From an uncultured virus (IMG/VR IMGVR_UViG_3300038825_001395) (lineage: Duplodnaviria; Heunggongvirae; Uroviricota; Caudoviricetes), in IMG/VR virus record IMGVR_UViG_3300038825_001395: 20,000 nucleotides of DNA; one strand, 5' to 3'. The position numbers were made by a program, and so were the translations under genes. The notes under the pieces are model-generated. The model saw nothing but the letters and a program-made list of their open reading frames with translations. It ran no database searches and was not told the DNA's origin. Of this stretch, positions 3,001 through 20,000 are shown one piece after another. The first letter of the stretch is position 1; the number at the start of each line of letters is the position of its first letter.

Positions 3001-6000
3001 TGGACTTGTTGTGCCTATGCCTAAATTATTAGCAATAAAGCCATGAGCAAACGAACCGGTTGAGGTTGATGAACCACTTACTTGTTGAATATTTTTTATA
3101 CTATTGACGGCATCAAAATCCATATCACCACCAATAATAACACCCCCACCAGAATCATTTTGTAGTCGTAAAGAACCAACACTTGTGTTAATACTATCTT
3201 GGTCAATAGTCATATAGTTAGAACTAAAACCGGATCTTTCTATTCTTATACCATCACCAGGACCACCAACACCACCAACTATATGAAGTGTTGTTGCTGG
3301 ATTTGTTGTTCTAATGCCTACTCTATCAGCAATATGAGCTTCAGCAAACGAACCGGTTGAGGATGCTGAACCACTTATTCGTGTTGTTGAAGCTCCAAAT
3401 TCTGCAGTATTACCGGTTAATGTAAAACCTGGTGCTGAACTAGCAGCAGCAGTGAATGCAAATCTGTTAAGAGCATGACTGTATTGTATCATCCCAATAT
3501 TGTTATCATCAGGATCACCAAAGAAAATACCACCTATTTTATTATTAGGTGTGAGTATTGAAATACCACCATCATTATCATTTTCAGCAACTATCTCATC
3601 TGCACTTGCATGAGCAACAACTGAACCAGCAGTTGCTGTATGGGAGTGAAGTGTTCCATCAGGAGTTGATGTGCCGATGCCTACTCTTCCTGTATTTCCT
3701 CTTATTACAAATTCTGTACCAGAAGCTATGTCAGCATTTCTTGATATAGAAAAGTTTTCAGCACTTGTTACTCCAGCATACCAATCTTCAGAAGCATTTT
3801 TAAAATGTACTGCTGCATTTGTTGTACCACTTCTTTCTATTCTAAAGTTATTTGCAGTTGATGATGAAAGATGTAATTGTACGGCAGGACTTGTTGTGCC
3901 GATGCCGACTTTTCCACCACTAGCAACTCTTAAAACTTCACCATCAATCTGATTTCCTAAAACAAAATGTTCTTCATTTACACTTCCACCAGCTATAAAT
4001 CCTAAGTAACCATCACCACCATTTTTTTCTAATCTAAAATGTATTAAATTATGTGGTTGAGTTGCACCAGTATTTGTATTTTCTAGTCTTAGCATAGCTT
4101 TACCATAAGCAGCAGTATCGTACTCATCAGATTCATTTTTAGCTATTGTTATTGGATAGTTAGTAGATGGAGTTGTCGTGCCGATGCCGACATTTCCCGA
4201 TGATAATACAGATATATTGGTAGTTGCTGCTTCAGCTGATGGACCAAAAGAGGATATACCCCCTTCAGCGACAACGTATGCCGAAGTATCATTATCCGCT
4301 ACCCGTAATTTTGCTCTGTTAGTTCTTGATTGTATCTTTAGTCCAACTTCACCACCACCCTCACTATTGAATATAGCAGTTTTAGTTAAACCAGATGTAG
4401 AAACACCTAATTGTAATCCAACTGTTGGATTTGTTGTGCCGATGCCTAAATTATCAGCAATATGAGCAGTACCGAACGAACCAGTTGATGTTGATGAACC
4501 ACTTATTGTATTTCCAAGAAACGTATGAGTATCGTCAGCACTATCTCCAAATATAGTTGAACCACTTAATGACTGATATTCTATAGAAGTGACTGATGAA
4601 GATACAATAAAGTTTTGAGCAGTTATGTTTCCTACTATATCTATGTTACCTGTTCCGGTAATATCATTACTATTAAGGTCTAAGTCACCGCCTAGTTGTG
4701 GTGTTGTATCTTCTACGACATTTGATATACCACTTCCACCACTTCCACCAGCAGCTAATGAGGCTGATGTAAAGTTTCCACCACCAACCATGAGATGACC
4801 GAATGAGCCGGTTGAGGTTGATGAGCCACTTACATTATTAAATGTTCCTAAAAAATTATGAATTACATCTGCGTCTTTTCCATATTTTATCTCTGTCCAA
4901 TAACTAGCTCCACCTAATAGTAAAGTAGTAGAGTTTGACGCTATAATATTAGAAGTTGCAGTTCCATCGTTTAATTGTGTAGTTCCTCCTAAAATAGTAA
5001 TACCATCAATTTCAAGATTACCTTGAACTTTATCAGCAACAACCAATGAACCAAACGAACCGGTTGATTGGGCTGAGCCACTTACCAATCCACCACTACT
5101 TCCAAGTAAAGTTAGTGTGTCTTGACGAACAGAAAGAGTATTATTACTACCAGTTCCAAAATGAATACCGGTAGCTTTTGTAGGATCATTTTCGTTATAA
5201 GGATTACCAGATGAACCTGAATTTATTAATATAGATACCCATTCGTAGATACCATCACCAATTCCATTTGGTCCAAAATCATTTCTTTTGTATAGTTGAT
5301 CAAAAAATCCATTGTAACCAGTAGTTAATTGTTTACCTACAAAGTGATTATTAGCAGTAGTAGGACCTATTGAATCAAAAAATGGATTAAAATTAGCATT
5401 TGAACCAGTTGTATATACATTTAAATGTTCATTTATTTTAGAACCAGCGGTTGTTAGACTATAGATAGTATTAGCACGAAAATCTGCTCGGTCATCTCTA
5501 GCATCTATTTCAAAACCAGCATTTTGACTTGAGTCTCCAGCAAACATTGAAGCAGTAGCAAATATATCAGTATTGACCACCCTTTCTGAAAATAAAGATG
5601 TTTGACCTATTTCATATCCACCGATAGTACCATCAGTAGCAGTTATTGAACCACTTAAAGTCATAGTGTTATTAGCAGGATCTAAATGAAAAAGAGAAGA
5701 ACTTATTTCTATGTTTCCACTACTAGCACTTATAAATTGACTTGTCTCACTTCCAATAAAAAATTTATTTGTTCGTATATCTAATTCACTTGGATTGGTT
5801 CTAAATCTAAAAAAACTTTCACTATTAGCAACCAATTCTAAACCAACTCCACCCAAAGAATAATCATCTGTTATATCATCTTTAACAGAACCGGAATACA
5901 TTAATATACCAGGACCCAATCCAAGAGAAGCACTTGTAAATCCTTTGTAATCTACGGTTGATAGTTCTGCTGATTTCTTACCCGAAAATGTAAATCCCTT

Positions 6001-6960
6001 TCCAACTTCTCTACCAACACTTAACGAACCGGTTAATAGGTTATCTGTTTTTTCTACAAAGAAAGGAGCAGAATCAAATGTTATAAATGATGATGTTACC
6101 TCAACTATCTCACCTTGTCTATCTTTATCTAGGTATTGTGCTAATTGTTTTGACGGACTTAAAAATCTTAATCTAAATTTTACAGGTGTGTTTCTTCTAA
6201 ATGTTTTTGGTGTCGGTATCTTTGTGGTATTTGTTATTGGGTTTAGACCAGAGGTAAGAGTTTGACTATCTGTTTCAAACGAACCACTTGTTAATGGATA
6301 TGATGTTATCACATCAAAATCATCTGTTTTAGATTTTTGTTCGTTGTATGCTAATTCTACAGATTCAATCTTTCCACCATTAGTTTCTAAATCAGAAAGA
6401 GTTACATTAATAAAACTTCTTTTATAAACTGTATCACTATCATCAAACTCAACCGTTTCACTTATACTTAAATTTGTTTGAATATCGGATGGCTTTGCTA
6501 ATACAAGTGGCGATGTATTTGGAAAATCTTTTCTTATATCATAGGTAAAAGAAGTTCTTACATTATATATTCCTTTCCAATCATTTGGTATTTCTTCACC
6601 ATCTAACTCACCCATTACATATAAGAAAGCAGGTCCGTCAGCAATCTCATCTGCTGTTCTTAATGGATCTTTCTTTATCCAAATAAATCCATTACCAGCG
6701 CCACTTAATTCTTCTATATCTATAAGGTTAGAAAATATTACAGTTCCACGAGAGTCAACAAACTCAAAAACAATATTGGATAAGTTTTTAAGAAGTGGTT
6801 CGTCTTCAGGATCATTAAAGGTTATAGAAAAAGGATGTTTTCCATAACTTAGGGTGCTGGGTAGACCAGTTATACTAAAGTATTTGGTATCGTTATCCTG
6901 TGTTTCAAGGAATACATCTTTCTTTTTGAGGTCTAGTACCTGACTAAATAGTTCTGCCAT
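31..6960 (-). CDS. Large tail fibre / receptor-binding virion structural protein (2309 aa), modular
   Basis: Gly/Ser/Thr-rich. Repeated (N/K/R)(V/L)GIGTTxP motifs and ten SGSxxSTGSF(G/A) motifs. TPQLGGDLDLN motif typical of marine phage virion proteins. C-terminal ..GDYIVTS..GHG..VIAQALE.. resembles tail-fibre/tailspike chaperone-like C-termini. Confidence 0.8.
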   Translation of the reverse strand: MAELFSQVLDLKKKDVFLETQDNDTKYFSITGLPSTLSYGKHPFSITFNDPEDEPLLKNLSNIVFEFVDSRGTVIFSNLIDIEELSGAGNGFIWIKKDPLRTADEIADGPAFLYVMGELDGEEIPNDWKGIYNVRTSFTYDIRKDFPNTSPLVLAKPSDIQTNLSISETVEFDDSDTVYKRSFINVTLSDLETNGGKIESVELAYNEQKSKTDDFDVITSYPLTSGSFETDSQTLTSGLNPITNTTKIPTPKTFRRNTPVKFRLRFLSPSKQLAQYLDKDRQGEIVEVTSSFITFDSAPFFVEKTDNLLTGSLSVGREVGKGFTFSGKKSAELSTVDYKGFTSASLGLGPGILMYSGSVKDDITDDYSLGGVGLELVANSESFFRFRTNPSELDIRTNKFFIGSETSQFISASSGNIEISSSLFHLDPANNTMTLSGSITATDGTIGGYEIGQTSLFSERVVNTDIFATASMFAGDSSQNAGFEIDARDDRADFRANTIYSLTTAGSKINEHLNVYTTGSNANFNPFFDSIGPTTANNHFVGKQLTTGYNGFFDQLYKRNDFGPNGIGDGIYEWVSILINSGSSGNPYNENDPTKATGIHFGTGSNNTLSVRQDTLTLLGSSGGLVSGSAQSTGSFGSLVVADKVQGNLEIDGITILGGTTQLNDGTATSNIIASNSTTLLLGGASYWTEIKYGKDADVIHNFLGTFNNVSGSSTSTGSFGHLMVGGGNFTSASLAAGGSGGSGISNVVEDTTPQLGGDLDLNSNDITGTGNIDIVGNITAQNFIVSSSVTSIEYQSLSGSTIFGDSADDTHTFLGNTISGSSTSTGSFGTAHIADNLGIGTTNPTVGLQLGVSTSGLTKTAIFNSEGGGEVGLKIQSRTNRAKLRVADNDTSAYVVAEGGISSFGPSAEAATTNISVLSSGNVGIGTTTPSTNYPITIAKNESDEYDTAAYGKAMLRLENTNTGATQPHNLIHFRLEKNGGDGYLGFIAGGSVNEEHFVLGNQIDGEVLRVASGGKVGIGTTSPAVQLHLSSSTANNFRIERSGTTNAAVHFKNASEDWYAGVTSAENFSISRNADIASGTEFVIRGNTGRVGIGTSTPDGTLHSHTATAGSVVAHASADEIVAENDNDGGISILTPNNKIGGIFFGDPDDNNIGMIQYSHALNRFAFTAAASSAPGFTLTGNTAEFGASTTRISGSASSTGSFAEAHIADRVGIRTTNPATTLHIVGGVGGPGDGIRIERSGFSSNYMTIDQDSINTSVGSLRLQNDSGGGVIIGGDMDFDAVNSIKNIQQVSGSSTSTGSFAHGFIANNLGIGTTSPVRMLDIVGAGAAIKVDSSDHAYIELDRGATGNLSQVKYLTAGSAKWYAGLTDSDVSGFDGTEFFIGEGSGGASDAHFVIDGSGNVTLGSGVALEFGDSNTKILGSSANNYLSFTPNGTELLRLVGTSISGSAVSTGSFGAGYIDNKLGVGTVNPKAPIHIFEDNYSTVMADPIADTRLFVSDIDGGSHIGIQSKNDNSGSIYFGHRTEIEAAKIVWDNSTDSMNFYSGSTKMFRYGLGDEIRFFKSLNSNSSIVTLGGIHVGGTSDPGNDNLTVDGIISGSIYDSINVEGTVSASGYGYFGGRVHLFGAISIGRQPGTDELTVGYDNSYNSIQYGKPAGTIHKFAGTIISGSSTSTGSFGSVRVREKYELAEHGDVFTIKDITNSRTLFSLTTGAVITLGNNYGANINLNTSAGVVIPNGTGLNVQSGNISGSAASTGSFGHGFIADKLGIGTTSPAYPLHITGADSAILLIGSTQGRVVLQDTGATSNSQAFDIVSVADKLNFRRLNDARSGVNATIMSFDGDKVGIGTTAPERKLHVVGNPILIDNNQHYEGKDSGGTKRRVIGLDSSNNINIGSGQSGGSINFIEGDATHMSIDASGNVEFLTASTISGSATSTGSFGELIIDSNGTFGGDIDLEGDIDVNGTTNLDNVDIDGTVQIDGNTTFGVSGTGVDVRFYGDTAGRYISWDQSADQLKFQDNTKLVFGTGLVTDADSDAQIYYDGSNLRLVNEGGVISLEDDVNVTGNVSGSATSTGSFGALRAGSGSLLELGDTTFAGYVGMKTGFMGSSDYMIISGISDGNTYISAKDTKSVEIRGGGNRDSNKIVVPDNTFIQLGGSSTTLIRPSVDNQATLGTAALRFSDVFAVQTTTGGVFETGLRTEKIGDNPTGTIVSWEEDGLVPCDKNEDELVMGVIKKGKDEPIVLGAEPVLVTGKVNVGDYIVTSDKIGHGKSVKRGYLLKKDLFGKVIAQALESCDGDSNLIKCMIRKM
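728..5083. repeat. Dispersed ~33-bp direct repeat, 10 copies (consensus ccaaacgaacc(g/a)gttgaggttg(c/a)tgaaccactt), encoding SGSxxSTGSF(G/A)
   Basis: Copies start at about 728, 1139, 1679, 1922, 2585, 3047, 3344, 4472, 4799 and 5051, all in frame within the tail fibre gene. Confidence 0.9.
1412..4446. repeat. Dispersed GTGCCGATGCC repeat (GGC-ATC-GGC-AC on the coding strand, G-I-G-T), 6 exact copies plus a 1-mismatch copy
   Basis: Exact copies at 1412, 1643, 3671, 3896, 4178 and 4436; variant at 3011. At about 1632-1710, 3000-3079, 3299-3376 and 4427-4504 this motif (or a degenerate copy) joins the 33-bp repeat to form ~80-bp similar blocks. Confidence 0.88.
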
Positions 6961-7030: not shown

Positions 7031-7195
7031 ATGAAGAAGAAATGTTCTTTTACAATAGATGACCAGCTTATAGAATGGTTTAAGTTATATGCTAAGGAAG
7101 AAAGCACTACTATGAGTGCTGTATTAAATCAATATATTCTTAGTTTAAAACGAGGAACATCTAAACCTAAAAATGTTCTTTATACTAACCGTTAG
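7031..7195 (+). CDS. Small ribbon-helix-helix (CopG/Arc-like) DNA-binding protein, 54 aa; not in the ORF track
   Basis: MKKKCSFTIDDQLIEWFKLYAKEESTTMSAVLNQYILSLKRGTSKPKNVLYTNR*. Beta-strand (KCSFTID), helix, T-M-S turn and second helix match the RHH pattern. GGAG SD 9 nt upstream. It fills the 6961-7191 gap, and its TAG overlaps the SbcCD stop. Confidence 0.8.
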   Translation: MKKKCSFTIDDQLIEWFKLYAKEESTTMSAVLNQYILSLKRGTSKPKNVLYTNR

Positions 7196-10100
7196 TTATA
7201 TATAACCTTAGAAAAACCTTTATCATCTACATTTACAGGTAGTAAATAATCCATAAAGTCTTTGATTGTATCTAAGTGAGATATGATAAAAACAGAATCA
7301 AATCTTGTTTTTAGATAATCAAAAGCACCTTTCATATTTGATAAGTTGTCCGTATCAAGTGTTCCAAATCCTTCATCTATAACAAGAAAGTTAGGACTTG
7401 GAAGATTAGATACATTAATCAAACCAACTCGGAGAGCAAGAGAAGAAACAAACTTTTCCATACCAGATGATAAACTTAACGGCCATTCTTGGTCATCATA
7501 CTTTATGTATAGGTTTATACTTTTATCTTCACTTGTTATACCTAACTGAAAACCAGCCATCATATGGTCTAATACTGTATTAACTTCATTTTCTATTATT
7601 GGAAGAGCATCATTTATAATAAGTTGTGGTATCCCATCACGATTAACTAACCTTAAATAAATCTCATAATCCGAAACCTTTTGTTCTGCCTTTACCAAGT
7701 CTTTGATTTCTTCTCCAAGATTTTTTTGATTTGTTTGTTCTATTAAGATACTAGATTCTGTTATAGCTAAGTCTTTTTTGTTTTCATCTAATATATCACT
7801 TGCTATTCTTACTTGAGTTTCTAACTTATTTATTTTTTGTGTTAAGTTATAATTGTGAGCAATAGCAACTTCATTATCTAAAAATATTGCTTGTTCTTCG
7901 GTAATCTTTTTTAAGGTTGATTGTGTTTGTTCTACTAAAAGTTCTAGTTCTTTTACTTTAGCATGAGTTTTATAAGCATCACCTTCAACTCTTTTTAAAT
8001 CCTCAACCATACCGTCATATTTTTGTTTTGTCTTTACTATTGTTTCATCTAGCACAATACTATTTTGTTGTTCTATTAACAATTGATAACTTATTGTGGC
8101 ATCACCTAAATCTTTTACTGCTGATTCTTTATCTTTGATTTGATGATCTCCATTTCTTAAACAATCTTCACAATCTTTGTTGTAATGATACTTATCAAGT
8201 TCTGTTATTTGTTTTTCTAATAAGTCAATAGCCATTTCAACTCTTTCTATTTCTTTTTCTATATCAGAAAGATTGGTTTTTTGTTTAAGATATTCTTCAT
8301 GTTTTTTGTTTAGGTCATCTTCATCATATACTTTTATCTGGTCAAATATTTGATTGTAGAGTGGTCTAAGATTTTCTCTATATTCATTTTCGGAAGCAAG
8401 AGTTGATTGTTGTTCTTCTAATTTAGTTGTAGTTTCTTCTATTAGTTTATCAAAATCCAATTCTTTTACATCACCGACATCTTTTAGTTTTGAGTTTAAT
8501 TCTACTATCTCTTCTTTAAACTCTTTAATATCAGTTTCTATAGGCTTTATCTTTTGTTCTAACTCATCTTTCTTTTCACCTAAATCAACTAAGGTTTGTT
8601 CTAACTTACCCATTTTTTGAAATACATTTTTATCTTTGATTCTTTTTAGATATCCTTTTTCATCAGATACATCTTCACGAGCAATATCATAAAGTTTATC
8701 AAAAAGGTCAATACCCATAAATTGAGATAAAATCTTTTTTCTTTCTGCTTGTTTTTTATCAACAAAGTTTTGTCCGTTGTTTTGTAGAGAAAGTGATGTA
8801 AGAATAAAGTCATCAAATGTCCCTAAGATACTTTTTATTTCTTCATTAGTTCCACTTCCATATTGTGAATTACTACGAGCAGCTCCACTAAGGTCAATCA
8901 TCTCATCATTTTCTATAACATAAAACTTAACAGATACAGGACATAGTTTTCTTACTTCGCCTGTTTTGCGACTTGTTCTAACTTTTAGTTTACCAGTTCG
9001 GTGAATAATATAATCAACACCATTTACCTCTAAGGATAGTTTTACCTCAAAGTTTTTTGACTTGTTGTTTAAGACTTCTATAGCTTTAAATGTTCTACTA
9101 CAAGTATCAAATATGGTATAAGCAATAGCATCTATTAAAGCTGACTTACCACTATGGTTTGGAGCAACAACACCAACTACACCATTTAGTTTAGTAAAAT
9201 CAACTTTGTTATTTTTACCATAACTAAACATATTATCAAACTCAATATACTTTAATTTCCAATCTACATTTTTTGGTAGTTCATTTTTCATACCAATAGA
9301 TGAGTTTGTAAATTCATTAATATCAAATAATCTTTGTATAGTTTTATCATCTATGGCTGGGTTTTCTAATCTAGCCATTTTATCTATCAAATTATTTTGA
9401 ACTTTTAAATCATGAATATCTTCTATTGATATTTTTGTATTAGAATTATTCATTATGTTTTCAATAGAATCTAATTTTTCAAATGATATAGATTTAAGTT
9501 CTGAATAAGTTTTTCTTAAATCCATTTCTATCAAACGGAGTTTTTCAGCTGATGTTCCTTTATGTTTTATTTTTAAGTTACCATATCTAGGAACAAAGTT
9601 CATCTTACTTTTTATTTCATCATCTTCTACACGGATTGTTTTAAATCCATAATCATTTTCTACTTGAACAAACTCGGACTTTCTTTTTTCTACATCCCAT
9701 AAAAGAAATCCGTGATCTGGTGCTTCAGCAAAGTTTTGTTGTATTAGTGAACCTGGATACGCAATAGTTTCATCATTATTTAAAAATTGTCTTTTGTGTA
9801 TATCACCTAATAAAACTAAATCATAACCATCAAAGTCAATAACATTTACATGTTCATCACTCATAACTAAACCGGTATCAACTTGAAAGTTTCCAACACC
9901 ACCATGATAAATAGCAATCTTATGGTCACCATCTATGTCTTTTGCTCTTGGTATATTTTTAGCATTTGGTTTTCCATCTTTTGTAATATCAAATACAGAT
10001 AGATGACCGAATTGACAACCACCCATTTCATATACACCTGTTTTTTTCCAAAAATGTATTCTTGGATTTATCTGTTTTACTAAATCAACAATTGGAGAAA

Positions 10101-10392
10101 GAACATCTTCTCTTGAAACATTATTTAAATTACAATCATGATTGCCTGGTACAACCAATAAGTCGGATATATCAGCAAGATTTAAAAAGAACTCTGCTAC
10201 TAATCTTGTTTCTTCAGGTGAGGTGTCTAATTTTCCATGAACAATATCACCACCTATGTATATTAAGTCTGGTTTTACTTCTTTTAACTTTACATATAAT
10301 CTATCAAACACATCTCTGTATTCTACAAACCTATGTAGTTTTCTAATGTGAATATCTGCTAAATGAGCAATCTTATTTATCTTCTTATCCAT
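7192..10392 (-). CDS. Fused SbcD/Mre11 nuclease - SbcC/Rad50 ATPase (T4 gp47-gp46-like recombination nuclease), ~1066 aa
   Basis: Metallophosphoesterase motifs ADIH, GGDIVH, GNHD, GDIH, YPGS. Walker A APNHSGKS, coiled coils with central CEDC zinc hook, signature LSSGME, Walker B LVIDEGFGTLD, H-loop ISH. Start moved to ATG 10392, which overlaps the primase stop (ATGGATAA). Confidence 0.92.
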   Translation of the reverse strand: MDKKINKIAHLADIHIRKLHRFVEYRDVFDRLYVKLKEVKPDLIYIGGDIVHGKLDTSPEETRLVAEFFLNLADISDLLVVPGNHDCNLNNVSREDVLSPIVDLVKQINPRIHFWKKTGVYEMGGCQFGHLSVFDITKDGKPNAKNIPRAKDIDGDHKIAIYHGGVGNFQVDTGLVMSDEHVNVIDFDGYDLVLLGDIHKRQFLNNDETIAYPGSLIQQNFAEAPDHGFLLWDVEKRKSEFVQVENDYGFKTIRVEDDEIKSKMNFVPRYGNLKIKHKGTSAEKLRLIEMDLRKTYSELKSISFEKLDSIENIMNNSNTKISIEDIHDLKVQNNLIDKMARLENPAIDDKTIQRLFDINEFTNSSIGMKNELPKNVDWKLKYIEFDNMFSYGKNNKVDFTKLNGVVGVVAPNHSGKSALIDAIAYTIFDTCSRTFKAIEVLNNKSKNFEVKLSLEVNGVDYIIHRTGKLKVRTSRKTGEVRKLCPVSVKFYVIENDEMIDLSGAARSNSQYGSGTNEEIKSILGTFDDFILTSLSLQNNGQNFVDKKQAERKKILSQFMGIDLFDKLYDIAREDVSDEKGYLKRIKDKNVFQKMGKLEQTLVDLGEKKDELEQKIKPIETDIKEFKEEIVELNSKLKDVGDVKELDFDKLIEETTTKLEEQQSTLASENEYRENLRPLYNQIFDQIKVYDEDDLNKKHEEYLKQKTNLSDIEKEIERVEMAIDLLEKQITELDKYHYNKDCEDCLRNGDHQIKDKESAVKDLGDATISYQLLIEQQNSIVLDETIVKTKQKYDGMVEDLKRVEGDAYKTHAKVKELELLVEQTQSTLKKITEEQAIFLDNEVAIAHNYNLTQKINKLETQVRIASDILDENKKDLAITESSILIEQTNQKNLGEEIKDLVKAEQKVSDYEIYLRLVNRDGIPQLIINDALPIIENEVNTVLDHMMAGFQLGITSEDKSINLYIKYDDQEWPLSLSSGMEKFVSSLALRVGLINVSNLPSPNFLVIDEGFGTLDTDNLSNMKGAFDYLKTRFDSVFIISHLDTIKDFMDYLLPVNVDDKGFSKVIYN

Positions 10393-11299
10393 ATAACTTT
10401 GCCTGTATTGAATCACTAAAACTAGCCGATTCAGTTGAGTTTATTAATGTTGTTATTTTTTCCCAACCCAAATCATTCGGGTCTTGGTCTTTCGGTAATT
10501 TTACTACTTTACTATCTATCCCAAAATCCTTAAAGAACTCTGACATAACATAAGCATCTTTCTTTGCATCATCATCAAGAGCAATATAAATTGTCTTAAC
10601 ATTTTTTTCAAAAATCTTTTGTAACAAACTTTTTGATGGTTTCTTACTTAACATCGGTATAGCGTTTGACCTAATAGACATAGCATCAAACACACCTTCA
10701 CACAATATAATTGGTTTTGACCAAGCAATATACCAATCAAATGGTATTACATCTCTTGATACATTTGGGTTTTTATACTTCATCTTTTCACCGACAAAAG
10801 AGCGACCAACAAAATAATTAAGTAATCCCATATGGTCATAACTTGGAATGATTATTCTGCCTTCATATAAACCTGAATCACAGAAACCTATTTTATATTT
10901 TTTTATATCCCAATCAGTAATACCTCTTTTATGTAAAAATGATTTTGCTTGATTACGGTAAATAGATTTACTAACTTTCCAAAGAGCTTGAAAATCTCTT
11001 GGTAAAGATACAATAACCTTTGATTCAGTTTCATCTTTTGATTTACTTGGAGTAAATACTAAATCTTTAAGCTCGGTAAAATACCTAGTGTCAGCATTTA
11101 CTTTTTTAAATAGTGAGTAAATAGAATGACCACCTTGATTACTAACCCAACAATGCCACTTCTGTGATTCTATGTTGACCTGTAACTTAGGCTTATAGTG
11201 ACTAACAAACGGAGAGTAAAACATATACTCATCTGCTTTGGTTAGGTTTTTACTTTTACTATTTAATGTTCTTTCTAATAGATAAACTAATTTATTCAT
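10385..11299 (-). CDS. DNA primase (DnaG-like, TOPRIM domain), ~304 aa
   Basis: FLHKRGI, GRIIIP, YFVGR, KYKNP, CEGVFDA, ALDDDA and DPND motifs. N-terminal zinc-binding-like region SPFVSH..WHCWVS. Start moved to ATG 11299, overlapping the upstream stop. Confidence 0.88.
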   Translation of the reverse strand: MNKLVYLLERTLNSKSKNLTKADEYMFYSPFVSHYKPKLQVNIESQKWHCWVSNQGGHSIYSLFKKVNADTRYFTELKDLVFTPSKSKDETESKVIVSLPRDFQALWKVSKSIYRNQAKSFLHKRGITDWDIKKYKIGFCDSGLYEGRIIIPSYDHMGLLNYFVGRSFVGEKMKYKNPNVSRDVIPFDWYIAWSKPIILCEGVFDAMSIRSNAIPMLSKKPSKSLLQKIFEKNVKTIYIALDDDAKKDAYVMSEFFKDFGIDSKVVKLPKDQDPNDLGWEKITTLINSTESASFSDSIQAKLYG

Positions 11300-13287: not shown

Positions 13288-14030
13288 TTTATCCCCTTAA
13301 GAATAAGTTGTTTTTCTATCCACTTTTTACCTAGATAATTTTTAATTGGTTGTTTAATAAACTTATTAATACCCTTTTTCATTAACATATCAAATTTATC
13401 TTTTGCCTTTTTTTCATCCAATGTTTTAGAATTATCAACCATAAGAAAATTAGCATTTCCAAAAAGACCTTGAAATGATATTCTATTTTTTTGTACTTCA
13501 TTCCAAGATGTTTCTACTAATTCAGGATTAAGTTTTCTAGGTCTTTCCATGTTTCTTTGTTGAGCTACATCTAAATCTGTATGAACAAATACCATATAAC
13601 AATCATAACCTATTGCTTCTAACTCTCTTTTTTGTTCTAATATCTTTCCGTATTTATGACCGGTGCCATCTATGATTAATCCCAATCTACCATTCATATA
13701 CATTTTTTTTCTTTGAGCAGTTAGTTCTTTTGCTCTACCCCTCATCCCACTATAATCATCATAATCAGGATCAGTAAGTTGTCTGAATAGTTCTTCTGGC
13801 ATATCATCTAAGTCTAAACCAAAACCATATTTTTTTAACATTCTTTCTAATTCTTTATCTTGATTAACAAGTTTTAGTCCATAAGCAGATACATTAATTT
13901 TTTTTGGTATTCCAAATAACCCTTGAGCAACAAAAGATTTACCACTACCAGGTCCTCCAGCAAGAAATACTGCCTTGAGAATACCTTTGTCCATAACACC
14001 TTCTGTAAGTATATCCTTTAACTTTACCAT
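13284..14030 (-). CDS. P-loop kinase (AAA_33 / zeta-toxin / polynucleotide-kinase-like), ~248 aa
   Basis: KAVFLAGGPGSGKS Walker A, LIIDGTG Walker B-like, lid RNMERPR. MVKLKDILTE leader. Start moved to ATG 14030. Confidence 0.8.
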   Translation of the reverse strand: MVKLKDILTEGVMDKGILKAVFLAGGPGSGKSFVAQGLFGIPKKINVSAYGLKLVNQDKELERMLKKYGFGLDLDDMPEELFRQLTDPDYDDYSGMRGRAKELTAQRKKMYMNGRLGLIIDGTGHKYGKILEQKRELEAIGYDCYMVFVHTDLDVAQQRNMERPRKLNPELVETSWNEVQKNRISFQGLFGNANFLMVDNSKTLDEKKAKDKFDMLMKKGINKFIKQPIKNYLGKKWIEKQLILKGIK

Positions 14031-15289
14031 TTTTTGCAACTCCAATATCTAGCTTTATGTCTTGGTCCTGGAGTATCACAATTATGTCTTGCTCTAAAGT
14101 TTCTACGAGCATCAGGATTAGACTTACGGATTCTCATAGTTTTACCTTTAGCAGAACTACCACCGTGTCCAAAATTTACCTTGACAACATTACCTTTATC
14201 ATTTTTTACATATACTTTAAACTTCTTTACATCACCTTGCATTGGCTTACCAAGTTTTACTTTTCTACCTTGATATTCTGCCTCTACTAAACCTGTCATT
14301 GTGTATCCAAATGAACCATCTTCATTCCATATGTCATATGATTCTTTTTTTACACAATTAGGATACTTTTTACCAAACATAGTTTTCATACCCTTTTGTG
14401 TATATCCTTTCCAACAGGCTTCACATAAACATTGATTTTCATTTACACCTTCTTTTTTAGATTTATTACCCCAATTCTTAGCACCGACCTTACGGCACTT
14501 TACAAGAGCACCACTTGCGTAAGCTGATGGCCAGACATCATAACGGGCTTTTACCTTATGATAACAAGCATCTTTTTTTTCATATATCTCTTCTGTTTGT
14601 TTAGCACATTCATCATGTTGACATAGTTTCATTACATTCTCCTGCTTCTTTCGTCCAGCACAATGTGCTTTCTGACTAAACCCCTTTGGGTTATTACAAT
14701 CAATACTTTTTTTATATTTATCAGACCAACCTTCATTTCTTTGTTTGGTTTTTTTCTTCATCTTATTAATAAACTTTCTATACACAGCAGCCTGAGATGA
14801 CTTACCCATCTCTCTGGCTCTTTGTTCCATAGCAACAGCTGCCTGTATTTTATGGGCATGAGACTTACCACTACCTTTTATTTTAGATACTGACTTTTCA
14901 GCATCCTTAACAGTAGCAAACTTCAATCCCTTTATTGTACCTTTTGGATTTTCATCCGTATACAAATCTGAATGACTTGGTGAGTTTCTATGTTGACCTT
15001 TCTTACGAGGTTTTCTTGGAGCTTCACCCAAAAGAGAATATCCCAAGATAGCCATAGCTTTATCTCTTGGAGAATCCCCTCTAAATTTTTTAACTACTTT
15101 TTTGTAATTCTTCTTTATCATATCTGTAGCATCTTTAGTAGACCTTCCATATTGTGTGAGAATTTTATGTATTGTTTTTATTTCAGACTCACTTATCTTT
15201 CCAATCATACCTAATGGTCTAGGACCACATCTCTTTCTGTATTGTGCTACTGTCTCGGTATTACTTTTATGTCCACAAGGTAAAGACAT
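14024..15289 (-). CDS. Basic, Cys-containing modular hypothetical phage protein (421 aa)
   Basis: String of short modules recognisable from large/T4-like phage hypothetical proteins (HSDLYTDENPKG; KYKKSIDCNNPKGFSQKAHC; DACYHKVKARYDVWPSAYASGALVKCRK; ACWKGY..PNCVK; AEYQGRKVKL..VKVNFG..ARYWSC). TAATG coupling to the upstream gene. Confidence 0.75.
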   Translation of the reverse strand: MSLPCGHKSNTETVAQYRKRCGPRPLGMIGKISESEIKTIHKILTQYGRSTKDATDMIKKNYKKVVKKFRGDSPRDKAMAILGYSLLGEAPRKPRKKGQHRNSPSHSDLYTDENPKGTIKGLKFATVKDAEKSVSKIKGSGKSHAHKIQAAVAMEQRAREMGKSSQAAVYRKFINKMKKKTKQRNEGWSDKYKKSIDCNNPKGFSQKAHCAGRKKQENVMKLCQHDECAKQTEEIYEKKDACYHKVKARYDVWPSAYASGALVKCRKVGAKNWGNKSKKEGVNENQCLCEACWKGYTQKGMKTMFGKKYPNCVKKESYDIWNEDGSFGYTMTGLVEAEYQGRKVKLGKPMQGDVKKFKVYVKNDKGNVVKVNFGHGGSSAKGKTMRIRKSNPDARRNFRARHNCDTPGPRHKARYWSCKKW

Positions 15290-15636
15290 TACTTCTTTGG
15301 TTTGGTATTAACTCTTATTGGTTTCTTACCACCACCCTTTAAATCCGATGTTCCACCTCTACCAGCTTTATTTTGAGCTGCTCTTTTTCTACGAGTTGCT
15401 GATTGTTTTTGTTTTTTGGTCATACCAGCAGCTTTTGATTTAGGAACACATTTAGCATAGCCTCTTGTTTTACCACTAGTTCCACAAGGGGGATGTTTAC
15501 CGGATTTATCTTTCTTACCGATGTTAACCCATTTATCAGAAAACCATTTCTTTAGATTTTCATCTACAAGGTTTCCACAATGAATACAGGTATTTTCATC
15601 AAAAATACTTTCTACTATTTTTCTTAAATGTATCAT
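15289..15636 (-). CDS. Basic hypothetical phage protein (115 aa)
   Basis: MIHLRKIVE..E leader. LKKWFSDKWV..PCG..YAKCVPKSKA module of the same kind as in the adjacent gene. Confidence 0.72.
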   Translation of the reverse strand: MIHLRKIVESIFDENTCIHCGNLVDENLKKWFSDKWVNIGKKDKSGKHPPCGTSGKTRGYAKCVPKSKAAGMTKKQKQSATRRKRAAQNKAGRGGTSDLKGGGKKPIRVNTKPKK

Positions 15637-15643
15637 TACATCT

Positions 15644-15651
15644 ATAAATAT
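15644..15651 (-). promoter_or_regulatory. ATATTTAT motif 7 nt upstream of ATG 15636; putative phage promoter for the 15636-7192 operon
   Basis: Minus strand reads ATATTTAT-AGATGTA-ATG, with the same spacing as at 6968-6975. All genes from 15636 to 7192 overlap start/stop, consistent with one transcript. Confidence 0.5.
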
Positions 15652-15681
15652 AATGTAAAAAAGAAAGGTTACTAATTAGTA

Positions 15682-16746
15682 TTATTTTAATATTGTTACT
15701 TTAGTTTTTTTGTAATTGGATACTAAAAAGTATATGCCACTTGGAACATCAGATGTATTCCAATTGTAATTTTTATTTATAATTTTTTCTTCAACTAACC
15801 TACCATTCATATCATAAATACCAATTAACCCATTAGCTATTATATTAACATTACTATTTGATGGATTAGGATAAGCAGATAATTTTGGTATTAATTTATT
15901 GAAAGTATTTTGGTCTAATACTGATTCTAAAAATGCTATAGCTTGTTGTTGATTACCACCAATCACTATCTGAACTAATCTTATTACATCAAGAATATTC
16001 ATCACACCATCGCCATTTACATTACCAGCTTCATATCCACATTGACTATCATTGTCTCCTAATATAATATCAACTAATATTAAAATGTCTGTTAAACTTA
16101 TAATTAAATCTCCATTTACATCTCCACCAGTCCATATTAAATTATTACAAGCATCACATACATCACCAATCTCATCACCATCCGTATCTACTTGATTTGG
16201 GTTATACCCATCAATACAATTATCATTATCATCAAATATACCATCGGCATCAGTATCTAAAACTAAATTTTCTATTCCTTCATTTATAGAATTTATTATC
16301 ATCGTTTGATTAAAACCGGATTCGGAAAGTAATACTTCACCATCACCACCTATGACAATATTATGCGGGATATAACCTGTTCCAAATAATCCATAGATAT
16401 TACTAACATCATCTAAGATAGGATATGTTAAACCAAAGGCTGTTCCCCATTCCTCACAACTATAAGGTTGATTCCATTCACTACCTATAGCAATCACCTC
16501 TAATACTGATTCATCATAATCTTGAAATATATCTTCTGTAAGTGGAGCCTCCACTTGACAACTTGGTCACCAACTGGTAAATAGATTTATCCAAACAACC
16601 TTATCCCTACCATCGGTATCATAATACCAAGTGCCTTCACCATTTTGACATATAGGAGCAGAGAAGTTATTTACATAATCTCCTACTTGATATGTTTGTC
16701 CTATTAATATTTGTAATGTAAATATCAGTAATATTATTTTATTCAT
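15682..16746 (-). CDS. Secreted redoxin (TlpA/AhpC-like) selenoprotein, 354 aa: signal peptide - UxxC thioredoxin-fold domain - TSP3 Ca-binding repeats - dockerin - T9SS-type C-terminal domain
   Basis: From ATG 16746 (overlapping the upstream stop) it reads MNKIILLIFTLQILIGQTYQVGDYVNNFSAPICQNGEGTWYYDTDGRDKVVWINLFTSW-TGA-PSCQVEAP.., in frame with the 290-aa ORF. TGA is codon 60 (16569-16567), at the first Cys position of WCxxC. Later motifs: YPIL..YIPHNIVIG (redoxin), DTDADG..DNC..NPNQVDTDGDEIGDVCD (TSP3), GDVNGD..TDILILV / GNVNGDGVMNILDVI (dockerin), YPNPSN..IYDMNGRLV..SGIYF..KVTILK (CTD). Confidence 0.88.
16537..16560 (-). promoter_or_regulatory. Putative bacterial SECIS hairpin
   Basis: mRNA reads UGA-CCAAGU-UGU-C-AAGUGGA-GGC-UCCACUU-ACA: a 7-bp perfect upper stem with a G-initiated loop 17 nt after the UGA, a bulged C and a 3-bp lower stem. 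Confidence 0.72.
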
Positions 16747-17134
16747 AAGCTCTCATTTTCTTTTTTATAACTAAAATGTAATTATCTATTACATCTGTAT
16801 TGACTTTATCCTTTTCCATCTTTTCTTTTTTAGCTACCAACTTACCATAAACTTTCTGTAAATCTAAAAGAGATAATGACCTCATAGATTTTCTGTAATA
16901 TAATTTATTGAGAGCTTCATCTTCAGCTTCTGCTCCACGAACTCCAGCAACTGTTGTTACTTTTTCTATCTCATAGTCTTTAATAGTAACTTCTTTAATT
17001 TCTTCCCACACGGTGTTTTCCCACATGGCATCTAAATCAAGTTCTTCTGTTGTGTCTTGACTAAAACTCAAGTTTAACAGGATACTCAGCCAAAATAAAG
17101 TTAAGACTATCGTAGGTATAATACCAAATCTCAT
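16739..17134 (-). CDS. Secreted hypothetical protein (131 aa) with TVAGVRGAEA motif
   Basis: Signal-peptide-like N-terminus ending LSFS|QD. AGGAGA SD upstream of the ATG. Overlaps the last pilin gene by 74 bp. Confidence 0.72.
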   Translation of the reverse strand: MRFGIIPTIVLTLFWLSILLNLSFSQDTTEELDLDAMWENTVWEEIKEVTIKDYEIEKVTTVAGVRGAEAEDEALNKLYYRKSMRSLSLLDLQKVYGKLVAKKEKMEKDKVNTDVIDNYILVIKKKMRAYE

Positions 17135-17480
17135 TATTCATTCTCCTATGATAAATTGCTGGATTACTTAAAATTGATGTTGAAAACTTCCATTCATTAT
17201 CAAATAGAGGAAGTCCTTCTGTAAGTGTTATATGATACCCACGAGTTCTTCCAACTAAAGTTAAGGGATTATATGGATATTTTTCAACTCCATTTACTTC
17301 TAATTCATACTCAGCGTATTCTTCTAAATCTTCCCAAAGTTTGTTAATAAACTTTTTTTCTAATTGTAGTAATTCAAGTTCTAATTTTTTTTGCATTTTA
17401 GGTAATTGAATTACAGAAAGTATTCCTATTATCACAATTACCATAACTAATTCAATCATAGTAAAGCCTTTAGAATACAT
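17061..17480 (-). CDS. Type IV pilin / pseudopilin (139 aa)
   Basis: Prepilin motif KG|FTMIELVMVIVIIGILSVIQLP (G-1, F+1, E+5, P+22). C-terminal half is paralogous to 17947..18387. Confidence 0.9.
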   Translation of the reverse strand: MYSKGFTMIELVMVIVIIGILSVIQLPKMQKKLELELLQLEKKFINKLWEDLEEYAEYELEVNGVEKYPYNPLTLVGRTRGYHITLTEGLPLFDNEWKFSTSILSNPAIYHRRMNNEIWYYTYDSLNFILAEYPVKLEF

Positions 17481-17926
17481 TAAATTTCTCCGATTACTTC
17501 TTCTTCATAAGATGGGCTATCCTCATCCTCATCAACTATAATTATCATCCGTGTTACAAATCCCGTTTCAGATGTGTCGGATTGAACATAATAATAAAAT
17601 GGATTGTTATTAGAATTCATCGGAAGATCACCACTAAACAAATCATTAACCATTCTACCATCTGATAAAACTTGAGCCTTAAACTCTAAATCCATTTGAT
17701 TGTTTTCTGGTTGTGGTGGAAAGTTAGGGTTTCCTATCATATGTCCTTCTTGCCAATACATCATAAATGTTGTTTTAACAATCTCCATATTTGTGATATT
17801 AGATTGTCTTTGTGTAGCAAGAACATTAGATTGGTAGGAGGGGATAGCGAATGACATCAATATCCCCACCAACGAAATAGAAACAACTAACTCTGCCAAT
17901 GTGAAACCATCATTGGAGTTTCTCAT
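17480..17926 (-). CDS. Type IV pilin / pseudopilin (148 aa)
   Basis: DG|FTLAELVVSISLVGILMSFAIPSY motif; AGGAG SD. Confidence 0.9.
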   Translation of the reverse strand: MRNSNDGFTLAELVVSISLVGILMSFAIPSYQSNVLATQRQSNITNMEIVKTTFMMYWQEGHMIGNPNFPPQPENNQMDLEFKAQVLSDGRMVNDLFSGDLPMNSNNNPFYYYVQSDTSETGFVTRMIIIVDEDEDSPSYEEEVIGEI

Positions 17927-17946
17927 TGGGTTCTCCTTTTTATTTA

Positions 17947-18387
17947 TTAAAGAGCTACCCTTTCACCGATTGAACCGATAGCAGCATTATCTCCATCTTG
18001 AACACCTTTATCATAGTCCCAAGCCCAACGAGTATTATCATTTCTCTGATGGGTAATCTGTAATGTTACTAAGTTATATGTCCATTCTCCATCTGTATCT
18101 GCATCATCTGTATCAGTAGCATCATATCCAGCAGGAGTTTCTTCTAATCCATCAAATGGATGATCTGGCCATACCTTACGACCTTCTGAAAATAGTTGTT
18201 CCATAGCATAGTTGGATAGTCCAGCTTGTATACTAGCGATTATAGCATCTTCAGCAGCTTCTTCAGCTTTTGTTACAGTTCCAAGATATCTTGGTACAGC
18301 AACTGCTGATAAAATACCTAAAATTATTGTTACCATTATTAGTTCAATTAATGTGAACCCTTTGTTGTCTTTTATTGTGTTAAACAT
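17947..18387 (-). CDS. Type IV pilin / pseudopilin (146 aa), MshA/PilA-like N-terminus
   Basis: KG|FTLIELIMVTIILGILSAVAVPRY motif; AAGGAG SD. Confidence 0.92.
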   Translation of the reverse strand: MFNTIKDNKGFTLIELIMVTIILGILSAVAVPRYLGTVTKAEEAAEDAIIASIQAGLSNYAMEQLFSEGRKVWPDHPFDGLEETPAGYDATDTDDADTDGEWTYNLVTLQITHQRNDNTRWAWDYDKGVQDGDNAAIGSIGERVAL

Positions 18388-18398
18388 TTCTGTTCTCC

Positions 18399-19034
18399 TT
18401 ACGGTTGTAGTTTCTTTTTAAAGTTAGCAGGTGATTCTAAATCAGCCACATAAAGTATTGGTGAATAAGAGGATTGTCCACTTCCACCACCAGCGATTAC
18501 TGTGTAAATATAGTGTCCATCCTGAAAAGGTGATTTAACAGCGTTTCCACCAAATTCATTTAGGAACTCTTCAGCTCCAACGGTTTCGCTGAAAGAACCA
18601 TCATCATCTGGATCTTCAGCAGTATTGACACTAGCACCCGTTGGCATTGGATTAGCAGGATTTTGTGTTCCAAATATAGAAGCCCATTTAGATGCTTCTG
18701 CACTTTCAAATGTTTGGAATACATTAAGTCCAGCTACCACAGAACTTTCATCTTGGTATCCACCACCATCAGGAACAGATTCATTGTATTTAACTTGACC
18801 TGGAAATCTTCCACGACCTTCACTAGTTACTTTTTCATTATAAAAGTTATTAGCAGATTTTACAATCTTATCAATATCAGCTAATGTCTTTTTTTCTTTA
18901 GCACCCTCTCCTACGCCAGAGAACTTAGGTGCAGCAGTAGTAGCGAGTGTCGCCATCATCGCTGTTGTTACAGCGAATTCAGCGAGTGACTGACCACTTC
19001 TACCTTTTAATTTTTTTCTTAGCTTTTGAAACAT
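18399..19034 (-). CDS. Pilin-like protein with atypical G|QSLAE cleavage motif (211 aa); candidate major pilin
   Basis: Basic leader MFQKLRKKLKGRSG|QSLAEFAVTTAMMATLATTAAPKF (E+5, P+22). AGGAGA SD at 19041-19046. First gene after the promoter region. Confidence 0.8.
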   Translation of the reverse strand: MFQKLRKKLKGRSGQSLAEFAVTTAMMATLATTAAPKFSGVGEGAKEKKTLADIDKIVKSANNFYNEKVTSEGRGRFPGQVKYNESVPDGGGYQDESSVVAGLNVFQTFESAEASKWASIFGTQNPANPMPTGASVNTAEDPDDDGSFSETVGAEEFLNEFGGNAVKSPFQDGHYIYTVIAGGGSGQSSYSPILYVADLESPANFKKKLQP

Positions 19035-19071
19035 TTTGTTTCTCCTATGTTAGTTGTTCTACACTATATAA

Positions 19072-19088
19072 TACAAAAACTATACCAA
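19072..19088 (-). promoter_or_regulatory. Sigma54 (RpoN)-like -24/-12 promoter for the pilin operon
   Basis: Minus strand TTGGTAT-AGTTT-TTGTA versus consensus TGGCAC-N5-TTGC(A/T). GG-N10-G spacing is exact, but -12 is GT instead of GC. Lies ~40-50 nt upstream of the first pilin ATG. Confidence 0.55.
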
Positions 19089-19160
19089 AGTACCTGTTTT
19101 TTACAAGTTTTTTTTAATTATTTTTTTAGTATTGATATTGTTGAGGTTAGGGGTATAAAT

Positions 19161-19189
19161 AAAAAAACCCCACTATGTGTGAGGTTTTT
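19161..19189 (-). terminator. Rho-independent terminator after the thioredoxin-like gene
   Basis: mRNA AAAAACCUCAC-ACAUA-GUGGGG-UUUUUUU: stem with one G-U pair followed by U7. Confidence 0.8.
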
Positions 19190-19191
19190 AA

Positions 19192-19233
19192 AATGATACA
19201 ACTGTATTTATTTGTTACAAATTATGTATCATT
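19192..19233. repeat. Inverted repeat AATGATACA-N24-TGTATCATT enclosing TGT-N11-ACA and the near-palindrome ATTTGT-T-ACAAAT; candidate activator binding sites
   Basis: Arms at 19192-19200 and 19225-19233; TGT-N11-ACA at 19203-19219; palindrome at 19210-19222. Confidence 0.5.
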
Positions 19234-19606
19234 AAAATACATCTTCTGCTAATACATCATCTATAGCACTTTTTATTTCTTTATTACTGGCATCTATCTC
19301 ACCATCCATATCACCTTTCCAAGTTTCTTTCTTAGAACCATCATAGAAAAGAGCCATAGATGGAAAGTTTCTAAATCTAAGTTTCTTTATTACTTTTGGT
19401 GCTTCTTCACTTTTAACATAAAGTATTTTACAATCTTGATATCCCTTTACACCCTTTATAAGTGATTCATCAAAATCAGCGTCTTGCCATTCTGATGTAA
19501 ATATGGCTACGACTATACCACCATTAATTTTTTCTTTAAAGTTCTTATCATTTATTTGTCCGTATGACACAGACAAAAATAATAATAAAGTAAATATAAA
19601 TCTCAT
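19232..19606 (-). CDS. Secreted thioredoxin-fold protein lacking the CxxC motif (124 aa)
   Basis: Signal peptide ..VSYG|Q, then INDKNFKEKI..VVAIFTSEW(QDAD), cis-Pro loop RNFPSMALFYDG. AGGAG SD. Confidence 0.75.
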   Translation of the reverse strand: MRFIFTLLLFLSVSYGQINDKNFKEKINGGIVVAIFTSEWQDADFDESLIKGVKGYQDCKILYVKSEEAPKVIKKLRFRNFPSMALFYDGSKKETWKGDMDGEIDASNKEIKSAIDDVLAEDVF

Positions 19607-19615
19607 AAGTAACTC

Positions 19616-20000
19616 CTATTTGTCTTTCTTCCTTCGTTCTAGGTCTTTAATATCCGATCTTAATTCTTTTATAAGTTCTTCATACTCATCTATTATTTCA
19701 TAGACGGCATCCATATCTTCTTGTAGTCCACCTACTTGGTTTTTATATTGTTCATAAGAACGAGGCCAGTTATGACCATCAGGTTTAGATGGATATTCAT
19801 CTGTAAAAATTGATTCTACATTTATTTCAGGTAGATTTTTTGCTTCTTCTATTTCTTGTAATAACATATAATAACCACCGACAGCAGTAGATATAAGAGT
19901 TATCAACCCTACTATGGTTTGAACCGACATTGAGAACTTAGTTCCCATAACCTTTTCTTCCGATAACTCAACCGGTTCTTCTTTTACAGGTTCGGGTTCA
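19616..20000 (-). CDS. Single-TM membrane protein with C-terminal coiled coil, 5'-truncated by the window
   Basis: The frame stays open upstream of the listed ATG 19948 to the window edge (..EPEPVKEEPVELSEEKVMGTKF..). Hydrophobic segment TIVGLITLISTAVGGYYML; heptad-rich C-terminus. Confidence 0.7.
   Translation of the reverse strand, partial: EPEPVKEEPVELSEEKVMGTKFSMSVQTIVGLITLISTAVGGYYMLLQEIEEAKNLPEINVESIFTDEYPSKPDGHNWPRSYEQYKNQVGGLQEDMDAVYEIIDEYEELIKELRSDIKDLERRKKDK

Follow-up and report, generated by a model that had tools for sequence, protein, structure and literature searches.

The subject of this report is a pilin gene module in a stretch of 20,000 nucleotides (nt) from an uncultured Caudoviricetes virus (IMG/VR record IMGVR_UViG_3300038825_001395). 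The window, as we call this whole stretch, carries every one of its genes on the minus strand. An earlier note had flagged positions 17061–19034 (minus strand) as four consecutive prepilin-type genes. The four open reading frames (ORFs), coding for 211, 146, 148 and 139 amino acids (aa), are indeed present, and are here called pil211, pil146, pil148 and pil139. The limits first drawn hold for these four pilins and are too narrow for the module as a whole, which extends to a fifth gene, h131 (16739–17134), outside them. Together, the five genes most likely form a cassette derived from the type IV pilus locus of the host. The comparisons below use 22 related viral loci (L001–L022), found by searching IMG/VR with the pil146 protein, and 45 loci found by scanning one genome per prokaryote species with the pil211 alignment.

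Three of the four pilins are canonical prepilins: pil146 (17947–18387, minus strand, 146 aa), pil148 (17480–17926, minus strand, 148 aa) and pil139 (17061–17480, minus strand, 139 aa). Their N-termini read NKG/FTLIEL (G/FTLIELIMV), NDG/FTLAEL (G/FTLAELVV) and SKG/FTMIEL (G/FTMIELVM), respectively, with the slash at the prepilin peptidase site. The Pfam N_methyl model (PF07963, cut-off 21.2 bits) scores them at 31.4, 26 and 26 bits, and TIGR02532 is above its cut-off for all three. They fall in PHROG families that include phrog_3433 ('pilin'), which pil146 matches together with phrog_27437. We rejected an assignment to GspG, the major pseudopilin of the type II secretion system, as TIGR01710 gave 41.3, 31.1 and 27.1 bits against a cut-off of 88.85, with the alignment limited to the N-terminal helix in pil146 (residues 9–65) and pil139 (residues 4–55) and reaching residue 117 of 148 in pil148. 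The Shine–Dalgarno sites (AGGAGAA) of the pilin genes, and the overlap of the pil139 start with the pil148 stop (TAATG), are as previously described. Homologues of pil146 in host genomes are 52–69% identical and directly follow the host pil211; those of pil148 occupy the same third position at 32–43% identity, and the phage copies of pil148 form one clade (Shimodaira–Hasegawa-like approximate likelihood ratio test, SH-aLRT, 91). For pil139, no orthologue was found in the host genomes examined. It aligns over its full length with host pil146-type genes at 28–36% identity and forms a phage-only clade on a long branch within the pil146 family; judging from this placement, pil139 is a phage-only paralogue of that family.

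The first gene of the operon, pil211 (18399–19034, minus strand, 211 aa), encodes an atypical type IV pilin. Its N-terminus, KGRSG/QSLAEF, has a glutamine at +1 and a glutamate at +5, and the glycine at −1 and the glutamate at +5 are invariant in 57 of 57 aligned relatives, which is how the gene earns its place among the prepilin-type genes. The protein has no match to Pfam N_methyl (PF07963), to any Pfam family at E ≤ 0.01 or to any NCBIfam family. It is the only pilin of the module for which a structure model was made (predicted local distance difference test, pLDDT, 85.4): a 58-residue N-terminal helix (residues 15–72) is followed by an alpha/beta head with three C-terminal strands. A Foldseek search of the PDB with this model returned nothing at E ≤ 0.001, the best pilin ranking sixth with a template modelling (TM) score of 0.30. 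In a VIA-align comparison with 48,161 chains, ranks 1–14 were all pilins or pseudopilins, at Z scores of 4.1–5.2, which is below the level that the tool regards as safe. We take pil211 to be a divergent pilin, mainly on the basis of its motif and its genomic company. Its G/QSLAEF N-terminus resembles those of Tad/Flp pilins or TadE-like pseudopilins. An assignment to either was rejected: there is no Flp or TadE match in Pfam, and the neighbours of the host homologues are of the PilB/PilC/PilD type and not of the Tad type. Both terminal parts of pil211 are conserved, the middle (approximately residues 85–160) is variable and comes in two allele types, and host homologues reach 81% protein identity.

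The last gene, h131 (16739–17134, minus strand, 131 aa), starts inside the 3′ end of pil139 with its own AGGAGAA site. An N-terminal signal-peptide-like segment, ending SFSQ/D, marks its product as a probable exported protein; the character of this segment is kept across relatives and its sequence is not. The core, AGVRGAEAEDEAL..LYYR, does not vary. There is no match between h131 and any family of Pfam, PHROG or NCBIfam, the ESM Atlas gave no usable match, and its structure model is poor (pLDDT 61.7; predicted TM score, pTM, 0.36). A complex prediction of h131 with the pil211 and pil146 heads scored 0.00, which has no bearing either way. The gene belongs to the module with the four pilins: it is present in all 18 related viral loci that reach its position, and in 5/5 host genomes searched a homologue, 44–53% identical, comes last among the same-strand genes of the pilus supercluster.

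Upstream of pil211, a hairpin with a T run (19163–19189, minus strand) resembles a terminator and would end the preceding thioredoxin-like gene (19232–19606). It is the sole terminator-like site found in 15500–19400, a region whose shuffled versions average 1.5 such sites, so that as an argument for the pilin module being a separate transcription unit it is weak on its own. The stretch between this hairpin and pil211 contains TTTGGTATAGTTTTTGTA, and a candidate sigma-54-type promoter, TGGTATAGTTTTTGTA (19072–19087, minus strand), lies 37 nt 5′ of the pil211 ATG, with GG at −24 and TTGT at −12. The exact motif TGGTAYANTNNTTGTA occurs once in the window; allowing one mismatch gives 2 matches, against 0.14 expected. 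The motif stands at the same place in 15 of the 17 related viral loci that have the region. Upstream of host pil211 genes, TGGCAC-N5-TTGC or a close variant (some with TTGT) occupies this place in 13 of 13 regions inspected, and the wider sigma-54 pattern marks most host pil211 paralogues individually. The exact phage pattern has no match in the host loci; only the wider pattern is common to both. A sigma-54 activator gene lies within the host pilus locus, and rpoN was found in 3/3 host genomes, versus 0/2 phage records. Since the phage motif is like the host pilin promoters and the hosts have rpoN, the phage operon looks wired to the host pilin switch. A second copy of the motif was seen downstream of h131 in two relatives (L004, 3856–3871; L005, 12427–12442), just upstream of a 674-aa gene. 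In L016, the counterpart of this gene matches a PHROG family annotated 'cobalamin biosynthesis protein', and a MoxR/CbbQ-type ATPase comes after it.

The 45 loci of the genome scan point to the origin of the cassette. By label, 19 are Marinimicrobia/Neomarinimicrobiota, 22 are unlabelled and 4 are other; the remaining window genes are absent from all of these loci except L056. The latter is a 2.7-kb contig binned in a bacterial metagenome-assembled genome (MAG), which is a phage-type fragment of the L019–L022 subgroup containing pil211, two pil146-type genes, pil139 and the start of h131. In the host order, 1–5 pil211 paralogues are followed by a pil146 homologue (15 copies in one locus) and then by a pil148 homologue. 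In a single-cell genome, a response regulator, PilD, PilB (with an MshE-type N-terminus), a sigma-54 activator and PilC are encoded upstream of the pilins; downstream come GspH-like and other minor pilins, an ExeA–PilM fusion, PilO, a GspB-like protein and the start of a secretin. The cluster continues in a second host genome with a lectin-domain protein, the secretin, a CHASE2 cyclase, a 1,426-aa FG-GAP protein and a 911-aa TPR protein, after which a 150-aa h131 homologue follows and, beyond it, the strand changes. The h131 homologue follows the TPR gene in all five host genomes searched. PilT-family genes score above cut-off in 4/5 host genomes, elsewhere on the chromosome. All five module genes thus have homologues in one Marinimicrobia type IV filament supercluster (described here from L028, L029 with L085, and L086), pil139 by way of the pil146 family, and from this homology SAR406/Marinimicrobia is the likely host. 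Tandem amplification of fibre-type pilins is seen at several Marinimicrobia loci (L050, 9956–20618; L049, 9956–16087; L029, 7019–10636; L039, 957–5651), some of the adjacent copies being identical after trimming.

All five genes and the promoter type appear to come from this supercluster, and the order pil211–pil146–pil148 is common to phage and host. The two differ in that the host has PilD, PilB, the activator, PilC, minor pilins, the lectin-domain protein, ExeA–PilM, PilO, the GspB-like protein, secretin, cyclase, FG-GAP and TPR proteins, whereas the phage carries none of these and adds pil139. The 'major plus minor' pilin set that had been proposed does not, in its usual sense, describe this content: the phage genes match the first three of the host pilin array, joined by a paralogue found only in phages, and the phage lacks the GspH-like minor pilins and the lectin-domain protein of the host. 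Protein identity to the closest host copy is 81%, the synonymous divergence (dS) being saturated, and the transfer is therefore old or heavily ameliorated. These figures, and the presence of pilins in the related phages, answer the concern that the pilins might be near-identical to host copies and absent from related phages.

The carrier is most likely a large, T4-like ocean phage. Pfam and PHROG scans of the window proteins identified, among others, a PHROG primase, a fused SbcD–SbcC-like nuclease and a RuvC-like resolvase. The viral context that had been called for comes from a relative of 125.6 kb that also carries the module and was annotated in full (94 ORFs of at least 110 aa). It has matches to a family-B DNA polymerase, clamp and clamp loader, to baseplate wedge proteins, the terminase large subunit, portal and endolysin, and to host-like functions (PhoH, Hsp20 and peptide deformylase), as well as a 4,469-aa protein with a tail-fibre C-terminus. 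CheckV places this record at 68% completeness, implying a genome of approximately 185 kb. No integrase was matched among its 94 ORFs, and the phage is apparently virulent (lytic), no integrase having been seen so far. As the earlier note had stated, no assembly machinery lies nearby: PilB, PilC, PilD and secretin families are absent from the 19 window proteins scanned, and in five related phage contigs (78–126 kb, 42–68% complete) PilD, PilC and secretin were each found in 0/5, with no PilB above cut-off. The T2SSE model gave sub-threshold P-loop matches in all five; these were rejected as PilB, the one examined being a MoxR/CbbQ-type AAA+ protein. A DNA search of public phage genomes with 15600–19200 gave no match, a tblastn search of the same genomes with pil146 matched the N-terminal helix alone, in two Vibrio phages, and Rfam had nothing above its gathering score in 15000–20000.

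The module is a stable unit among these phages. Within the limits set by contig ends, each of the 22 related viral contigs keeps its gene order, including contigs whose pilins are as little as 45–55% identical; with the same genes in the same order in 22 viral contigs, the four-pilin array is therefore not due to chance. All 18 related loci covering the position of pil211 have the gene, and pil139 is present in 18 of 19, the exception being L012, which runs from pil148 straight to h131. In L019–L022, a second pil146-type gene occupies the pil148 slot. Relatives at E ≤ 0.001 are numerous in marine metagenomes (3,234 for pil146 and 4,426 for h131), and 14 DNA runs from seven studies contain at least 92% of the sampled words of 16600–19300, three of which runs may be the source of the record. 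This is thus a phage group seen in many marine data sets.

All five module genes are under purifying selection in the phage lineage, with gene-wide ratios of non-synonymous to synonymous divergence (dN/dS) of 0.09–0.54 (41 computable pair-by-gene values). By region, the ratio in pil211 is 0.03–0.28 for the N-terminal helix, 0–0.19 for the C-terminal sheet and 0.11–0.50 for the middle third, which is the fastest-evolving part in phages and hosts alike. The assembly helix and the C-terminal sheet are as strongly constrained as in hosts. The region-wise ratio never exceeds 1 and so gives no support for positive selection on pil211. Phage and host sequences interleave in the trees of pil211 and pil146 (from which 12 host paralogues without the exact N-terminal regular expression and nine rows, respectively, are omitted), and one pil211 allele type sits on a long phage-only branch. 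Several exchanges of pil211 between phages and hosts are unsupported: holding the 19 phage rows together is not rejected (approximately unbiased test, p-AU 0.28). For pil146, a tree that keeps the 22 first-slot phage copies as one group is marginally rejected (p-AU 0.031), for a group named after the tree had been seen.

We propose that the module is a host-derived fibre cassette in a SAR406/Marinimicrobia phage, whose subunits are processed and assembled by the host machinery into a remodelled pilus, and we see about an even chance that this is right. In an infected cell, host sigma-54 and the activator of the pilus locus would transcribe the operon, and host PilD would cleave the four prepilins. 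The host PilB/PilC/secretin machine would then build the phage subunits into the host fibre, or in its place, so that the pilus would display surfaces specified by the phage. Dependence on host machinery, already suggested in the earlier note, is a reasonable inference because the genes are homologous to pilin genes that lie beside PilD, PilB and PilC in Marinimicrobia. The least certain step is the benefit: the pilus may stay assembled and go unrecognized by pilus-binding competitors or sibling virions. We favor such superinfection exclusion by receptor replacement, by analogy with the prophage pilin P-FimU (PMC12952977).

Several points weigh against this proposal. Cleavage, assembly, a change in piliation and an effect on adsorption are deduced from the genes, and the pilus would have to serve as a receptor for this phage or its competitors. 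The host assignment rests on the labels of MAGs and single-amplified genomes and on gene homology. The host system may be a pilus or a secretion pseudopilus, its ATPase and platform protein scoring similarly on the PilB/GspE and PilC/GspF models, below cut-offs. The phage records are incomplete (42–68%), so assembly genes may sit elsewhere in the genome. At the promoter, the −12 element is TTGT against a consensus of TTGC, though the GG is intact and the spacing unchanged; an activator binding site was not identified there, leaving the promoter sigma-54-type by sequence. Lastly, contigs from RNA libraries of three studies cover the module and give a weak hint of transcription; RNA libraries can contain DNA, so such contigs cannot prove it. 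In one RNA run the pilin bins stand far above the rest of the window, in a run that was found with this stretch and where contig depth cannot rank genes.

That viruses can make pilins that host machinery assembles is already known, and two statements of the earlier note give way to this precedent: that characterized anti-pilus proteins act only by inhibiting assembly, and that the array is a candidate for an undescribed system. Both P-FimU and P-PilA, reported in 2026 (PMC12952977), and the SNJ2 pilins, reported in 2025 (PMC12426801), came before. P-FimU is made by F10-like prophages of Pseudomonas aeruginosa and incorporated in the pilus by the host machinery, where it takes the place of a tip pilin and keeps tip-binding phages from adsorbing (Sztanko et al., Cell Rep 2026, PMC12952977). 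Like the cassette, it is phage-encoded, homologous to a host pilus subunit and comes without assembly genes; its phage versions are diverse, and the promoter upstream is conserved (PMC12952977). It differs in being a single minor (tip) pilin of temperate phages in a cultured pathogen, with anti-adsorption demonstrated experimentally (PMC12952977), whereas the cassette, known from its genes, has four fibre-type pilins and an exported protein behind a sigma-54-type promoter, in an apparently virulent T4-like phage of an uncultured host. The same report describes P-PilA of Xylella fastidiosa prophages and PilA-like proteins in four non-temperate phage groups, approximately 50% identical to host PilA and some from virulent phages; unlike the cassette, these are single uncharacterized genes found by BLAST, with no multi-gene cassette under a host promoter among them (PMC12952977).

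SNJ2-like archaeal proviruses carry one to four host-derived pilins that are assembled by host PilB/PilC (PMC12426801). The PilA1 and PilA2 pilins of SNJ2, an archaeal pleolipovirus, share with the cassette a tandem arrangement of two to four viral pilin genes, capture from the host and duplication after capture, and, once assembled by host PilB/PilC, they make up the filaments that dominate the surface (Xiang et al., Cell Rep 2025, PMC12426801). SNJ2 differs in being a temperate, membrane-enveloped virus of archaea whose pili are the receptor for a second virus, and a sigma-54 promoter or an accessory exported protein is not reported in the accessible part of that account (PMC12426801). Aqs1 of DMS3 and a Pf phage protein likewise counter superinfection by acting on the type IV pilus; they inhibit its function and are not pilins, in contrast to the pilus subunits encoded here (PMC13436744, PMC8764522). 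Our literature search, which did not cover subscription journals, found no description of such a cassette, and a term search of the accessible text of a single-cell study of marine virus–host pairs found no mention of pilin or pili (PMC4611503). New here are the composition of five genes, a promoter type retained from the host, a paralogue found only in phages, an accessory protein that is exported and the occurrence in abundant ocean phages of an uncultured phylum. Experiments first demonstrated host assembly of virus-made pilins in 2025–2026, for one tip pilin of Pseudomonas prophages and for two fibre pilins of a haloarchaeal provirus; the cassette extends the idea to an apparently lytic phage with a multi-gene set, its own host-type regulatory signal and an abundant uncultured ocean host. 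It links the phage group to a host, and gives a handle on the purpose of the SAR406 pilus and on phage–phage competition in the open ocean.

A bolder form of the proposal is tentative and, in our view, rather doubtful: the phage would re-specify the whole exposed fibre with three host-type subunits, pil139 and h131 under the host sigma-54 switch, and pilin alleles would be exchanged with SAR406 over time. If true, this would amount to a 'viral pilus' programme, in which phages would both store and drive the pilin diversity of one of the most abundant uncultured lineages in the ocean.

A different use of the same genes, unlikely by our estimate and still deserving attention, is maintenance of the pilus in the manner of auxiliary metabolic genes. 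During a long infection of a slow-growing host, fast-turnover fibre subunits would be resupplied as host expression declines, keeping or boosting adhesion to particles, uptake or surface sensing. The cassette consists of exactly the fibre-type genes that are amplified in hosts (up to 4–5 pil211 paralogues and 15 pil146-type genes), the host-type promoter is retained, the lectin-domain and FG-GAP surface proteins of the host cluster suggest adhesion, and PhoH, peptide deformylase and Hsp20 are further host-like functions of the phage. Viral pili of SNJ2 enhance the host's biofilm formation and its motility (PMC12426801). The phage copies are, however, not replicas of the host genes, given the 32–43% identity of pil148, the lack of a host orthologue of pil139 and the pil211 allele type on its long phage-only branch, and this pattern of divergence fits altered function better than resupply.

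Exclusion would also result if the phage pilins were poison subunits that enter the pathway and block extension or retraction, so that the pilus is lost, which we consider improbable. FimU overexpression disrupts assembly according to the discussion in PMC12952977, changes in pilin stoichiometry are reported to disturb assembly, and pil139 and the divergent pil148 could terminate it. Yet a single subunit would suffice for poisoning, whereas conservation extends to five genes, one of them coding for a major-type pilin of full length whose exposed region varies, and the pil211 helix and sheet are constrained as in hosts. Lower still, and very improbable, is passive cargo, i.e. host pilin genes picked up by chance and shuttled between hosts with no role in infection. 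The interleaving of phage and host pil146 and the marginal rejection of a single first-slot group would suit this; the module order kept despite pilin identities down to 45–55%, the purifying selection on all five genes, the saturated dS against the closest host copy and the conserved promoter speak against it. An assembly chimera or bacterial contamination with chromosomal pilins, which the earlier note had allowed for and to which the close homologues in bacterial genomes might point, is refuted by synteny and almost certainly wrong, as many independent contigs have phage genes to either side of the module, other window genes are not shared by the host loci, and the region recurs in the 14 DNA runs from seven studies mentioned above.

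Next to the module, two ORFs on the minus strand (16567–16746, 59 aa, and 15682–16554, 290 aa) form one frame (15682–16746) with a single in-frame TGA at 16567–16569, located at the first position of a thioredoxin-fold W-U-P-S-C motif. Reading this TGA as selenocysteine would give a 354-aa protein with a signal peptide, a redoxin-like domain, dockerin-like repeats and a C-terminal sorting domain of the type IX secretion system (T9SS), and we regard the gene as a candidate for a phage-borne, T9SS-exported selenoprotein. Four relatives (L002, L003, L015 and L018) retain the TGA and, approximately 13 nt downstream, a hairpin whose stem carries changes. Selenoprotein homologues, 45–56% identical and each with exactly one internal TGA, occur in 4/5 host genomes, as does SelA. 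The scan of 15500–19400 found no terminator between this gene and the pilin module, and no natural phage selenoprotein was among the matches listed in the literature search. In L001 (11254–12035, compared with 15289–17134 of the window), the pilins are 100% identical to those of the window and the selenoprotein gene is missing, h131 being followed directly by a homologue of the gene for a 115-aa protein (h115); the gene is therefore subject to a presence/absence polymorphism within one phage population.

Elsewhere on the minus strand of the window, 14024–15636 encodes two basic, cysteine-containing proteins (115 and 421 aa) of the PHROG unknown-function families phrog_23735 and phrog_727, whose order or fusion differs among relatives. 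The SbcD–SbcC-like fusion (7192–10416) is one 1,074-aa protein, in which an N-terminal Mre11/SbcD-type phosphoesterase (residues 15–244) is joined to an SbcC/Rad50-type ATPase; T4-like phages have separate genes, gp47 and gp46, for the two. A 2,309-aa ORF without a Pfam or PHROG match covers 31–6960, and the 125.6-kb relative has a 2,232-aa ORF, also without a match, two genes downstream of its baseplate wedge genes. Together with the 4,469-aa protein of that relative, they could be giant proteins of a fibre or baseplate, with receptor binding as a candidate role.

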